A stretch of DNA of 11,714 nt from Hormoscilla sp. (GTDB lineage: Bacteria; Cyanobacteriota; Cyanobacteriia; Cyanobacteriales; Desertifilaceae). Below the pieces are notes generated by a model. The model was not told the origin of the DNA. It saw nothing but the letters and a program-made list of their open reading frames with translations, and did no database searches. Below are positions 3,898 to 11,714 of the stretch, piece by piece. The stretch's first letter is position 1. Each line of letters starts with the position of its first letter. The translations under genes were made by a program, and so were the position numbers. The DNA is taken from NCBI GenBank assembly GCA_051439505.1, contig JBFRWI010000156.1, positions 1 to 11,714 of the forward strand. Direction: 5' to 3'.

Positions 3898-3925
3898 AAT
3901 GGAGAATGGAGAATGGAGAATGGAG
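3898..3925. repeat. heptamer tandem repeat (AATGGAG)x4, STRR-like
   Basis: Four exact units directly upstream of the 3897 start; on the + strand they also precede rbsK. Confidence 0.9.
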
Positions 3926-3956
3926 AATTTAAAATTGAGAAACTCACAATTTACAA

Positions 3957-4883: not shown

Positions 4884-4913
4884 AGAACTGTAATGGAGGA
4901 TTGAGAATTGAGC

Positions 4914-4960
4914 ATTAGCAATTAGCAATTAGCAATTAGCAATTAGCAATTAGCAATTAG
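4914..4960. repeat. heptamer tandem repeat (ATTAGCA)x6 plus partial, STRR-like
   Basis: Six exact units plus ATTAG in the rbsK-phosphatase spacer. Confidence 0.92.
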
Positions 4961-7903: not shown

Positions 7904-9064
7904 TTACAGGAGTCCTCCGATCGCGATCGCCCCCCGATCGGCCACTCCCGGTTCTCCCAAAGACTGACGCATTTGCTGATAGTCAGAATGTATTTGCTGG
8001 CGTCGGACAGGGTTAACTAACAAGTCCATTCCTGCCGAGACGATCGCCTCTGGGGTAGCTTCCTCTTGGAGAAACTCGGGCACAATTTCTCTCATCTCTA
8101 CCAGGTTGGGGGGAGACATAAAGGGAATCGAAAATTTTAACAATTTGCGAGCAATAAAACCAGTGATCTGACTCACGCGGTAAAGCACTACCTGGGGGAC
8201 ATCCAAGAGAGCAAGTTCTAAGTTTACTGTACCAGATTTTGTAATTGCTAAGTCAGCAGACGCCAATACTTCTTCAGTCTTACTGCTGATTGTAGCATGA
8301 ATACCGTAATGGCCGATCGCCCGTTGAATGGGTTCGCGAAATTCTTCCCTAGACAGAGGAATCCAAAAATGAACATCCAATTGGGATTGAATCATTTTCG
8401 CAGCAGCAAAGATCGCGGGCAGCAAATATTTTAACTCTTGGCTGCGGGAAGCGGGAATGAGGGCGATCGCCTTTTTTTCAGCATCAATTCCCAAAGCAGT
8501 CCGGGCCTGAGTCCGAGAAGGAAATATTAGCATTCTATCTATTAAAGGATGACCCACCCAAGTCACATGGGCCCCATGTTCGGCAAAATAACGGGCTTCT
8601 TCTGGGAAAATAGCTAATAGCAAGTCGGTAATTTTCACAATTTGCGCAGTTTCCCGCTGCCGTGCCGACCAGACCCAAGTCTGAGGCGCAATGTAGTAAA
8701 CTATGGGTACTTGGGGCAGATAGCGACGGAGAAAAGTACCAATACTTAAATTAGGTCCGGGATAGTCCAGCAACACCACTAGATCGGGAGGATTTTCCCG
8801 CAAATATTTCTTAGTTTTCTGCTGAATCTTAAACGTCGGCAAAACATAAGGCAAAGATTCCCAAATGCCCACAGAACCAATGGCCGTCGTGTTCCCTAAC
8901 AACTGCGCCCCCGCTGCCGCCATGCGATCGCCCCCCAATGCGATAATTTCGAAAGAGTAACCTGCGGCCACAGCTTGCCGTTGTAGGGCCTCAATCAACA
9001 GGGCCCCTTGCAGATCCCCGGACACCTCTCCCGTACTGATAAAAATCCTCCGACCATTGTTCAT
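7904..9064 (-). CDS. lpxB: lipid-A-disaccharide synthase
   Basis: RIFISTGEVSGD, DYPGPN, YYIAPQ, FPEEA, VGHPL, PASRSQE, KSGTVNLE, PEFLQ motifs; lpx gene context. Confidence 0.97.
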   Translation of the reverse strand: MNNGRRIFISTGEVSGDLQGALLIEALQRQAVAAGYSFEIIALGGDRMAAAGAQLLGNTTAIGSVGIWESLPYVLPTFKIQQKTKKYLRENPPDLVVLLDYPGPNLSIGTFLRRYLPQVPIVYYIAPQTWVWSARQRETAQIVKITDLLLAIFPEEARYFAEHGAHVTWVGHPLIDRMLIFPSRTQARTALGIDAEKKAIALIPASRSQELKYLLPAIFAAAKMIQSQLDVHFWIPLSREEFREPIQRAIGHYGIHATISSKTEEVLASADLAITKSGTVNLELALLDVPQVVLYRVSQITGFIARKLLKFSIPFMSPPNLVEMREIVPEFLQEEATPEAIVSAGMDLLVNPVRRQQIHSDYQQMRQSLGEPGVADRGAIAIGGLL

Positions 9065-9126
9065 TGCTAATTGTTCATTGCTAATTGTTCATTGCTAATT
9101 GCTAATCGCTAATCGCTAATTGCTAA
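9057..9126. repeat. mixed heptamer array (TTGTTCA/TTGCTAA/TCGCTAA), 10 units
   Basis: Units read directly; the array overlaps the lpxB start codon. Confidence 0.9.
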
Positions 9127-9177
9127 TTGCCTATCAACGATTGTCCATTCTCAATGGGTGTGGTCATGCATTTGTTG

Positions 9178-9420
9178 CAGCGGGGGATCTCCCCTTCTTC
9201 ACTTCTTAATTATTTAAAAATGCGCAGGAGAACCCTGCCACAGGGCTCTCCTTGTGGAGTCGAAGTGAGCGATTTAGAGATTTACCTGACCCGGAGTTAC
9301 GCAAAAAGCGCCTCAGAACCGTTGTTTAACCCAAGTGGGGCGCTTTTTTTTGCGCAGTCCGGGCCGGGCATCCCTGGTTTCGCTTGGGCTTGTGTTACGT
9401 TGACTTTCCAAGCCCCCATG
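9178..9420 (-). other. highly structured segment: nested IS4-derived MITE-like repeat or ncRNA
   Basis: Hairpins at 9386-9415, 9268-9384 (117 nt) and 9226-9252; imperfect termini CATGGGGG / CAGCGGGGG. From memory it resembles a cyanobacterial IS4-end-related repeat (GGGGCTTGGAAAGTCAAC); not verified. Confidence 0.5.
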
Positions 9421-9439
9421 AACCAATATTGCTAAATAT

Positions 9440-9469
9440 AGTATAGCTAACGGGAGTGGAATTTGTCAA
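9440..9469 (-). promoter_or_regulatory. near-consensus sigma70 promoter inside the element, facing lpxB
   Basis: TTGACA (9469-9464), 18-nt spacer, TATACT (9445-9440). Confidence 0.65.
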
Positions 9470-9656
9470 GGGTTTAGGAAATTTTTTTCCCTCTCATGGG
9501 ATATTTATTTGATCTTCATATCACTTTTCTACCGTCACACAACGGGTGTGGCTCATTTGTAGTCGATCGGGAAGAAACCCGGGGTTCGAGAGGAGTTACC
9601 GGGTTTCATGCTCACGGGCCTGCCCCTCTACCAACCGGTGCAAGACCACACCCTTC

Positions 9657-10484
9657 TCAATTGTCCATTTTCAATTGTCCATTCTCAATTTTTCTTTTTC
9701 CGGGAATGGGACCGCGACGGCCTTCCGTAAGAGACGATCGCATGAACTGGTGCAGATGTTGTAATAGTTCGCTATCAGGTAGCAATTCTAGCTGTTCTAG
9801 GGCTTGACGCAAAGTATAATTAGAACGATAGAGTATTCTAAAGGCTTTTTTTAGCAATTCTAACTCCGAGGAAGTCAAACCAGCACGTTTCAGTCCCACC
9901 AGATTGAGCGATCGCACGCGAGAAGGATTTCCCTCCACTAGCATATAGGGTGGCACATCCCGATCGATCCGACTCATGCCCCCCACCATAGCCATGCTAC
10001 CAATATGGACGAATTGATGAATTCCCAACATGCCACCAATCACCGCCCGGGACTCAATTGTTACGTGACCTGCCAAGGCTACAGAATTAGCAATTACCAC
10101 CTCATCCGCGATCGCGCAATTATGGGCCACGTGAACGTAAGCCATCAGCAAATTGCCATTCCCAATGACCGTCATTTCTCCCGCCCGAGTTGCCCGGTTA
10201 ATCGTCACGTATTCGCGGATGCGGTTGCGCGAGCCAATTTTCACCAAGCTAACAGACCCATCATATTTCAGGTCTTGGGGTTCCAAACCAATAGCCGCCC
10301 CCGGAAATATTTTATTGTCTTCTCCAATTTCCGTCCAACCATCGATCGTTACATGGGGCCCGATCGTCGTTCCCGCCCCAATTACAGCATGTTCTCCAAT
10401 GACAGCATAAGGTGCCACCTGCACCGTTGGATGCAGCTTAGCACCTGGATGAATTGCAGCAGTTGGATGAATCAGTGTCGTCAT
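9657..10484 (-). CDS. lpxA: acyl-ACP--UDP-N-acetylglucosamine O-acyltransferase
   Basis: IHPTA hexapeptide repeats, PQDLKY, IREYVTINR, HVAHNC, IHQF, LNLVGLKR. ATG at 10484 with AAGGGA upstream. Confidence 0.97.
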   Translation of the reverse strand: MTTLIHPTAAIHPGAKLHPTVQVAPYAVIGEHAVIGAGTTIGPHVTIDGWTEIGEDNKIFPGAAIGLEPQDLKYDGSVSLVKIGSRNRIREYVTINRATRAGEMTVIGNGNLLMAYVHVAHNCAIADEVVIANSVALAGHVTIESRAVIGGMLGIHQFVHIGSMAMVGGMSRIDRDVPPYMLVEGNPSRVRSLNLVGLKRAGLTSSELELLKKAFRILYRSNYTLRQALEQLELLPDSELLQHLHQFMRSSLTEGRRGPIPGKRKIENGQLKMDN

Positions 10485-10490
10485 TTTTCC

Positions 10491-10562
10491 CTTGCTAATT
10501 GCTAATCGGAATGAACTAGACAATTAACCATTAGCAATTAACCATTAGCAATCAACAATCAA
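10491..10562. repeat. degenerate heptamer repeats in the fabZ-lpxA spacer
   Basis: TTGCTAA units followed by oppositely oriented ATTAACC/ATTAGCA/ATCAACA units. Confidence 0.65.
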
Positions 10563-10569
10563 CCGCTTT

Positions 10570-11076
10570 TTAATCCACGATTGAAAACATCAATTCCGCT
10601 TCTGCCACCTTTTTACCATCTACTTCGGCCAGACATTGCATTTTGCCAAAACGATTCCGCTTGACACTCAGCAGTGTGACAGTGATTACCAATTGGTCCC
10701 CAGGCACCACTGGACGTCGGAACTTAGCCTTATCGATACCAGTTAACATAGATAGTCCTTCGGGACAATTGGGCAACTGAGCGAGTAATACGCCGCATAC
10801 TTGGGCCATTGCTTCGGTAATCAGCACACCTGGCATGATCGGACGCCCTGGGAAATGACCTTGGAAATGGGGTTCATTACAGGTAACATTTTTAATTCCT
10901 ACAGCCTTTTCGCCCGGTACATATTCAATAATCCGGTCTACCAGCAAAAAAGGATAGCGGTGGGGCAGGAGTTTGGTAATCTCTTCGAGGCTGATAACTG
11001 TTTTGGACTTCGCCTCAGCCTCTGGTGGCTGAGTCTTGGCATTCTCGGATGTATTAACTTCGGTTAAACTGGACAT
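10570..11076 (-). CDS. fabZ: 3-hydroxyacyl-ACP dehydratase
   Basis: [46 protein letters not shown] motifs. Confidence 0.98.
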
Positions 11077-11109: not shown

Positions 11110-11714
11110 TCAATTAGACTGGCAAATTTTTTGGGCAAGTTTGACATGCAGTTGATGGCTGGCTTTGTAGGCCAGGTAATGAGCCACCGGAATGGTTCCC
11201 AGCAAACTCATATCCCCTATTAAGTCTAATAGTTTATGACGCACCGGTTCATTGGCAAATCGCAAAGGCGGATTCAGCCACCCCTCGGCACTACAAACTA
11301 AGGCATTATCCAGAGTACCACCTTTGATTAAGCCCCGATCGCGCAATTGCTGGATTTGGTCTGCCAAACCAAAAGTCCTCGCCGGTGCGATTTCCGTAGC
11401 AAAGTCCTCTGAGACTGGTTCCCAGCTGTGCCATTGATTGCCAATAGCAGGCACGGAAAAGTCAATTCCATAGGTGAAGCGAGTTTTGCTAGCGGGCATG
11501 GCACAGACGAAGGCGTCATCCCGCTGCACCCAAACTGGTTCTGCAATTTGGACCTGGGCCCGGGTGTGGTCAAAAGTAGTTGGAGAGGATCCCCCCCAAA
11601 CCCCCCCTTCCAAAAGGGGGGGGTTCCGGAAGCCCCCCTTTCTAAGGGGGGTTTGGGGGGATCCGGCGACTGGGGTATGCGATGTTCGATCGACGGGTTT
11701 TGACCACAGCTGGG
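11110..11714 (-). CDS. lpxC: UDP-3-O-acyl-GlcNAc deacetylase, 3' part, with in-frame insertion
   Basis: [44 protein letters not shown] motifs. Manual translation shows the frame is open to the window edge. Confidence 0.93.
11562..11710. mobile_element. GGGTGTGGTC-family miniature element inside lpxC
   Basis: GGTGTGGTCAAAA (11563-11575) and TTTTGACCACAGC (11698-11710) match 12/13 as inverted repeats. CTGGG recurs at 11554 and 11710, 156 nt apart; the putative TSD is cut by the window edge. Confidence 0.7.
11587..11664. repeat. 78-bp C/G-run palindromic dispersed repeat
   Basis: GGATCCCCCCCAAACCCCCCCTT...TTCCGGAA...AAGGGGGGTTTGGGGGGATCC, a near-perfect palindrome centred on 11624-11631. Confidence 0.85.

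Follow-up and report, generated by a model that had tools for sequence, protein, structure and literature searches.

The window, that is, the whole stretch of DNA analysed (11,714 nt), corresponds to the entire contig C156. Joined to contig C9, it gives the gene order bamA-lpxC-fabZ-lpxA-lpxB, in which the outer-membrane protein gene located upstream of lpxC on C9 is taken by us to be bamA. The features concerned are the following.

7904..9064, minus strand: lpxB (Pfam LpxB, E = 1e-97)
9156..9653, no strand: second non-autonomous element of 498 bp in the lpxA–lpxB intergenic region (its TIRs were located at 9156 and at 9644-9653)
9657..10523, minus strand: lpxA (Pfam Acetyltransf_11 and Hexapep)
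10570..11076, minus strand: fabZ, downstream of lpxC (Pfam FabA-like)
11110..11552, minus strand: C-terminal domain II of lpxC, including the stop codon and the motifs HKLLD and KASH (Pfam, identity to congeners)
11553..11561, no strand: near TSD copy CCTGGGCCC, 9 bp (the family TSD is 9 bp, and the homologue P0002 has the site once)
11562..11708, no strand: MITE of 147 bp with an intact TIR at 11562 (BLAST, nhmmer, fold)
11587..11664, no strand: internal G/C-rich palindrome of the MITE, encoding the Pro/Gly-rich middle of the peptide (inverted repeat I21, RNA fold)
11709..11714, no strand: first bases of the far TSD, GCTGGG, to which C9 adds the remaining CCC (exact, unique overlap of 127 nt)
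L001:5335-5813, on the C9 side: N-terminal half of LpxC (family match)

The end of C9 matches the last 127 nt of the window exactly, and this 127-mer is unique, being present in C9 and C156 alone. Beyond the overlap, C9 reads CCC and then LpxC domain I in the same frame; on the minus strand of the window, no stop codon interrupts this frame from the edge across the element to LpxC domain II. Once the two contigs are joined, both domains of LpxC lie in one frame: the N-terminal half, on C9, covers positions 11–114 of NCBIfam TIGR00325, and the C-terminal half, in the window, covers positions 125–273. Residues 48–197 of the latter also match positions 117–267 of Pfam LpxC (E = 4e-55). The idea that the N-terminal half is a pseudogene or frameshifted was rejected, since C9 continues domain I in frame. 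The C-terminal half is 90–93% identical to those of four congeners. The motifs TVEH, HKxLD and KASH, which we take to be the zinc-binding/catalytic motifs of LpxC, are all present in the genome, and across 108 homologues their E, H, H, K, D and H columns do not vary. A single lpxC match, with no second lpxC, was found in the genome (93%-complete assembly). In two public runs, which may come from the source sample, contigs match the lpxC-side junction without differences, at single-copy depth and with no alternative letters, and no contig skips the element; their reach into it is 26 letters, below the 31-letter rule for bridging. These runs lend weak read support to the lpxC-side junction.

LpxC of this genus begins at MMEK and is several residues shorter than its counterparts in other cyanobacteria (L001:5335, L003–L006), and in the source genome this start directly follows heptamer repeats. 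The shortening was not regarded as damage, since all four congeners begin at the same MMEK motif. Heptamer tandem tracts also occur between the genes of the window (3898-3941, 4889-4960, 9055-9155, 9654-9697 and 10485-10563); intergenic repeats of this kind are typical of filamentous cyanobacteria.

The first-pass annotation had placed a mobile element with TIRs and a TSD in frame inside lpxC, and the adjoining contig, the empty allele of P0002 and the Pfam and structural placement all agree with it. It had noticed GGGTGTGGTC at both 11562 and 9156: with up to one mismatch, 5 matches were counted against 0.56 expected, and none of 200 shuffles reached 5. CTGGG does recur at 11554 and 11710, with a spacing of 156 nt, and the minus strand reads through the insert without a stop, yielding the 52-residue peptide quoted there. 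Past the window edge, the sequence had been predicted to complete an 8-bp TSD with CCC and then G. C9 gives CCC, so that CTGGGCCC is duplicated, but the next base is T; the duplication is real, but the TSD of the family is 9 bp, and here its copies match at 8 of the 9 positions (CCTGGGCCC and GCTGGGCCC). Likewise, the far end does pair with the intact TIR, but over 11 nt alone, the terminal CCC being lost, and LpxC does resume past the insert in frame to domain I, but through a C9-side flank that is a repeat-derived linker and not canonical LpxC.

Because the terminal CCC of the far TIR has been lost, the lpxC copy adds 147 + 9 = 156 nt instead of the usual 150 + 9, and the MITE and TSD together add 52 residues on the minus strand. 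An intact 150-bp copy would add 159 nt, likewise a multiple of three. In P0002 (265 aa), the closest homologue in the database, the sequence is ...PNGFPGRTVGTRAQ-VQITEPVW, with GTRAQ directly before VQITEPVW, and the source genome reads GTRAQ, 52 residues and then VQIAEPVW. The insertion is exactly 52 codons because P0002 has no residues between the two motifs, and excising the insert restores the P0002 allele exactly. The nearest sibling in the genome is 97% identical (BLAST); the nearest siblings are 149–151 nt long and show 2–4 differences, mostly homopolymer slips, and if they stood at the lpxC site they would shift the frame. Judging from these 2–4 differences, the lpxC copy is young. Its RNA is predicted to fold into a long hairpin (−80.1 kcal/mol, z −3.15). 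A terminator role of this hairpin was rejected, the terminator-like matches being at chance level (two weak matches against 1.5 by chance).

The element at 9156 had been assigned to the same TIR family. Its ends are indeed alike, but its interior is different and multicopy, and identity with the lpxC MITE was rejected beyond the TIR. The 8-bp repeat flanking 9156–9653 lies within a heptamer tract. Positions 9156–9544 gave 35 BLAST matches in the genome, the multicopy interior being about 330 bp, and Rfam gave no match for the element. A unique end piece of 109 bp, starting at 9545, is nested in it.

By BLAST, 88 full-length copies of the lpxC MITE were found in the genome, and an HMM built from 81 seed copies (model length 150) detected 239 loci in the whole genome with nhmmer, among which 126 are near full length and 46 lie at contig ends. 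The intact ends of the family are GGGTGTGGTC ... GACCACACCC. The TSD is exact at 9 bp in 82 of the 118 paired copies, at 8 bp in 5 and at 10 bp in 1; an 8-bp TSD was rejected for the family, 9 bp being the rule. The copies have the features of bacterial MITEs, namely, short length (about 70–400 bp, with no transposase gene), TIRs, a TSD and many dispersed copies. The family was found in all four congeners, and neither Rfam nor plasmid BLAST gave a match for it. The lengths of the intergenic copies show no clear triplet bias (41/36/27 by length modulo 3), and a family-wide bias to triplet length was rejected on these counts. For canonical 150 + 9 copies, 45 of the 126 orientation and phase combinations (about 36%) are stop-free.

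TIR pairs with a TSD delimit five elements longer than 400 bp in the genome, one of which is a candidate autonomous element, referred to hereafter as the C102 element:

L034:101-2541 (G000 C102:12439-14879): candidate autonomous element, 2,441 bp, with an open transposase frame of 471 aa

This element has an exact 9-bp TSD, ends in CCC and is bounded by terminal repeats of about 260 bp, which agree at 232 of 258 aligned bases; over its first 26 bases, it matches the MITE end at 21. The best family of its transposase is ISKra4 (NF033572; 179.6 bits against a cut-off of 205, E = 1e-52), ISLre2 scores 65 bits, and Pfam UPF0236 lies above its own cut-off. By eye, without alignment to reference transposases, its motifs were located at D206, D293, D314-x-x-H317 and E415. 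The D2-E spacing, about 121, fits the published insert of 99–138 residues, and the DxxH lies 21 residues past D2, slightly over the published 11–19. Relatives of the C102 element in G004 and G001 are 75–76% identical and split into two frames; their first 21 straight bases are those of the MITE end, and 9-bp TSDs flank two of the three complete loci inspected. The transposase homologues L075, L076 and L079 of these two congeners are split at similar places in several copies. From the shared ends and the TSD length, the ISKra4-like (p-MULT, Mutator-type) C102 transposase is likely to move the MITE. Sub-terminal parts of its terminal repeats are spread through the genus, and the transposase therefore likely drives several MITE families. 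Two other elements were rejected as the partner: one (L033, G000 C81:36974-39096) is a MITE of the lpxC-insert family carrying an intact IS4 transposase, and the other (L032, C174:29000-30404) is a TIR-bounded element of 1,405 bp with a HU-like passenger ORF.

When the empty sites of TSD-flanked copies were reconstructed, 7 of 111 fell in long ORFs; for random positions, the figure was 853 of 1500. The frame is kept without a stop in six of these seven genic copies, as compared with 61 of the 624 orientation and phase combinations obtained from the intergenic pool (about 10%; P = 5.6e-6), and is shifted in the remaining one (C62). Target choice may explain part of this scarcity in genes, because ISKra4-group elements can favour promoter regions, upstream of sigma-A promoters, according to the accessible part of PMC3942029. 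The in-frame excess is not accounted for by target choice. Taken together, the count of 7 in 111 and the frame excess suggest that most gene insertions are likely to have been purged.

In the HMM census of the genome, 20 open frames run through a copy and extend at least 200 nt beyond it in both directions; 16 of these copies reach at least one model end, and 4 consist of the core palindrome only. The lpxC gene is additional to the 20, because it is split across contigs. The hosts include RqcH/NFACT, Lnt, MenE, MenC, MenD (a label given from TPP domains and presumed from recall), RsmG, a PTS enzyme I fusion, a YcaO cyclodehydratase, an FMN hydroxy-acid oxidase, two hybrid kinases, one of which we take to be CikA-like, and a WD40 protein. 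At least three different frames of the MITE are in use among the genic copies. Both ends are present in 7 genic copies and one end in 8, as against 94 and 40 elsewhere; with the crude pattern used for this count, the difference is a trend alone (P = 0.08), and an enrichment of end loss in genic copies was not accepted.

Nine host genes besides lpxC were checked against their orthologues. The MITE is absent from all five orthologues of RqcH, of the CikA-like kinase and of Lnt, three of the Lnt proteins being exactly 53 residues shorter and one carrying another insert. It is also absent from all four orthologues of RsmG (43 residues shorter), MenE and MenC, from three of four of MenD, the remaining one being frameshifted (G001), and from three of four of the hydroxy-acid oxidase (exactly 53 shorter), the remaining one being broken (G002). 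At the corresponding site of MenE, MenC and MenD, a different repeat is found in the congeners. The ninth gene, which we presume to be GT39-like and for which there is no family match, has its insert in common with G004 alone among the four congeners. This shared insert shows 6 non-synonymous and 2 synonymous codon changes; outside it, the counts are 1 and 9 in the downstream part and 8 and 4 in the upstream part. Small as these numbers are, they fit a peptide that drifts while its frame is kept. The menD homologue of G001 and the oxidase homologue of G002 are split and the C62 frame is broken, and some of the target genes would therefore be dispensable.

Several observations on individual hosts and congeners are recorded here. 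In the hydroxy-acid oxidase (L044, G000 C135:7130-7279), the insert divides DALSE from VVAAV, a site that we assume to be a barrel helix and not a loop, and the allele may be inactive; folded without an alignment, this protein with its insert gave an uninformative pLDDT of 36. Another MITE copy (L046, G000 C28:30058-30207), flanked by an exact TSD, stands in frame directly ahead of the prepilin motif in the HpsB pseudopilin, whose leader peptide it may lengthen. A flag for a TIR in a gap of L073 was discarded, its source being a Thr-His repeat. In G002, two rqcH-like copies lie about 36 kb apart in opposite orientation (L052, C1:570265 and 607579), and both show a match gap near query residues 175–182. 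In the congeners, other repeat-derived peptides occur in frame at the same sites (L003–L006, L058–L060, L071–L074, L090–L093 and L098–L101), with a recurring TLKGGATGTKPACAGF-like motif in MenE, MenC, MenD and GT39. Judging from these sequences, repeats appear to have invaded the proteome of the genus.

The insertion had been assigned to the linker that joins the two domains of LpxC, and the boundary between model positions 114 and 125 of TIGR00325, as well as an AlphaFold model of a congener protein, places it there. The lpxC linkers of the four congeners, in all of which the gene is intact, are 30, 53, 94 and 85 residues long; all are repeat-derived and mutually different, and some are nested. 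In the nearest database relatives, the linker is 18–28 residues, and in 101 homologues its median length is 20, with 18 reaching at least 35. The C9-side flank of the MITE is itself a short palindromic repeat, of which the genome holds 12 close copies, and the MITE would therefore have landed beside an older insert. The AlphaFold model, made from a 108-row alignment for the congener protein with the 94-residue linker and not for that of the source genome, gives a pLDDT above 90 for both domains and 38–60 for the insert, and it matches solved LpxC structures (E = 1e-27). Accordingly, a disordered loop at the surface of LpxC is predicted for the 52 residues. Both halves of lpxC gave dN/dS values of 0.12–0.22 against the four congeners, which mostly reflect the time before the insertion because the lpxC copy is young. 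The claim that the insertion is tolerated thus gains indirect support from the intact motifs, these dN/dS values and the genome-wide excess of frame-keeping copies. The insert-bearing LpxC is likely to retain activity, and the host enzymes in general likely still work, because the added stretches of about 50 amino acids are predicted to lie on flexible loops. Our literature search, with most subscription papers outside its reach, gave nothing on inserts in the linker of cyanobacterial LpxC.

These results are well explained, and in our judgement probably so, by a 150-bp MITE moved by an ISKra4-like transposase that stands in frame in the LpxC linker as a disordered loop, the enzyme likely working. 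Three steps may be envisaged. A REP-like palindrome would already have been present in the lpxC linker; the transposase would then have inserted a 150-bp copy with duplication of 9 bp, lengthening the gene by 159 nt (53 codons) without a stop in the frame; and a loss of 3 nt with one substitution at the junction would have removed the terminal TIR bases, leaving 156 nt. The end loss likely immobilised the lpxC copy. Across the genome, disruptive genic insertions would be purged, and the survivors would be those with a length that is a multiple of three, no stop and a permissive loop. The inserted peptide appears neutral, the selection being on the frame and not on the residues.

A stronger version of this explanation is that the MITE has evolved for read-through, its most frequent unit, 150 bp with the 9-bp duplication, consisting of whole codons, being mostly stop-free and encoding a Pro/Gly-rich spacer. 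If it were true, the MITE would be a natural linker-scanning mutagen, a selfish element that colonises core genes, and together with other repeats it would rewrite the same loops of LpxC, Lnt, MenC/D/E and further proteins throughout the genus and create new protein surface. We regard it as rather unlikely: the intergenic copies lack a clear triplet bias, and the idea is weakened because a G/C-rich palindrome has few stops anyway.

It is distinctly unlikely that the insert cripples LpxC, the allele persisting as lipid A synthesis is dispensable or reduced or as the insertion is too recent, with the open frame being a matter of luck. The copy is young, a single in-frame event is not rare when about 36% of the combinations are stop-free, and our literature search found no paper showing lpxC to be essential in cyanobacteria. 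Against this, the four congeners all keep lpxC intact with long linker inserts, the catalytic motifs are intact with no second lpxC, the two public runs show the junction at single-copy depth and no alternative letters, and six of the seven genic copies are in frame. Recruitment of the insert, either as a hairpin that tunes the stability or processing of the lpxC-fabZ-lpxA-lpxB mRNA or as a Pro/Gly loop that alters the turnover or partners of LpxC, is very unlikely. The hairpin is stable, the same linker has been colonised repeatedly in five genomes, one insert (in the GT39-like gene) is kept across two species, and end loss is somewhat commoner in genic copies; however, the congener inserts are unrelated in sequence and length, the nearest relatives have short-linker alleles, the shared GT39-like insert drifts at the amino-acid level, and the terminator-like matches stay at chance. 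Finally, a repeat mis-joined at a contig end, with lpxC really uninterrupted, is scarcely credible: the contig does break within the element, 46 of the 239 loci lie at contig ends, and the run contigs enter it from the lpxC side only, but the 127-mer overlap is exact and confined to C9 and C156, the target is duplicated on both flanks, the join restores the frame, removal of the insert gives the P0002 allele exactly, and no contig skips the element.

As a tolerated insertion in lpxC, the case is modest by itself, because this linker varies widely in cyanobacteria. Its value lies in that the whole chain is visible, from the candidate transposase and the fixed TSD to the young copies, the empty alleles of sister genomes and a measurable frame filter. 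Matched allele pairs, such as P0002 and the source LpxC, thereby make it possible to test how selfish DNA is turned into protein. The inserts also map insertion-tolerant loops in LpxC, which is an antibiotic target in other bacteria, and in Lnt, RsmG and the Men enzymes, and genes of this type are prone to splitting and mis-annotation in fragmented assemblies. In the accessible parts of the published sources, Rickettsia is the main known source of in-frame repeat inserts in conserved proteins; the family-level picture obtained here, including the reuse of loops by different repeats, is cleaner and more testable than that classic case.

Among known systems, the candidate mover resembles the p-MULT 4/ISKra4 elements (the ISKra4, ISAzba1 and ISMich2 groups; PMC3942029). 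As far as the available text of that paper goes, p-MULT elements have IRs of 18–39 bp, DRs of 8–9 bp and DDE and C/D(2)H motifs, and the p-MULT 4 list takes in cyanobacteria. The C102 element shares with p-MULT 4 the IRs ending in C, the 9-bp DR and the presence in cyanobacteria and, as far as the motifs located by eye go, a DDE-type transposase with a DxxH and a D2-E spacing of about 120 residues; the ISMich2 group is split in two frames, as are the congener relatives, whereas the C102 copy is one open frame. Unlike p-MULT 4 elements, the lpxC element is non-autonomous, and its candidate partner, the C102 element, has terminal repeats of about 260 bp and scores below the ISKra4 cut-off. The word MITE does not occur in the available text of PMC3942029. 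In our literature search, which had most subscription papers outside its reach, no ISKra4-family MITE in frame in genes was found.

By description, the lpxC MITE can also be set beside Nezha and the Anabaena PCC 7120 MITEs, which are 130–170 bp long, share their TIRs with ISs, have flanking DRs and fold stably, and it may overlap a named family; Nezha is tied to ISNpu3. The portion of that source consulted (PMC3184786) reports ORF fusions for the Anabaena MITEs and holds no account of internal in-frame inserts in many conserved enzymes. The BRE of Bordetella and the intragenic GTAG/CGTC REPs are similar in that they lie in protein genes, about 9 for BRE and many for the REPs, and they have been proposed to be neutral in linkers or loops; they differ in length (about 90 bp and 20–40 bp, respectively), and in the accessible text neither is linked to TIRs, a 9-bp TSD and a DDE transposase (PMC3184786, PMC3733652).

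The closest parallel is the RPE of Rickettsia, described in the passages available of PMC2229807, PMC10969869 and PMC3733652 as a palindrome of about 105–150 bp that occurs in frame in conserved genes as well as in intergenic copies and forms stem-loop RNA. There, RPEs were found in 19 ORFs of R. conorii, and the single enzyme assayed, an RPE-bearing guanylate kinase, was translated and active with a changed affinity, the effect being regarded as likely neutral (PMC2229807); in-frame MITE fusions are called 'not unusual' (PMC10969869); and for RPEs these passages list the TSD as unknown and name no transposase. Like RPEs, the present element is palindromic and stands in frame in conserved genes (lpxC and nine others checked). 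Unlike the Rickettsia-specific RPEs, its host is, judging from the LpxC homologues, a cyanobacterium, and it has a 9-bp TSD, a putative cognate element with an open transposase frame, young siblings and exact empty alleles, the two being compared by description. By analogy, then, the lpxC element works like an RPE but is not an RPE.
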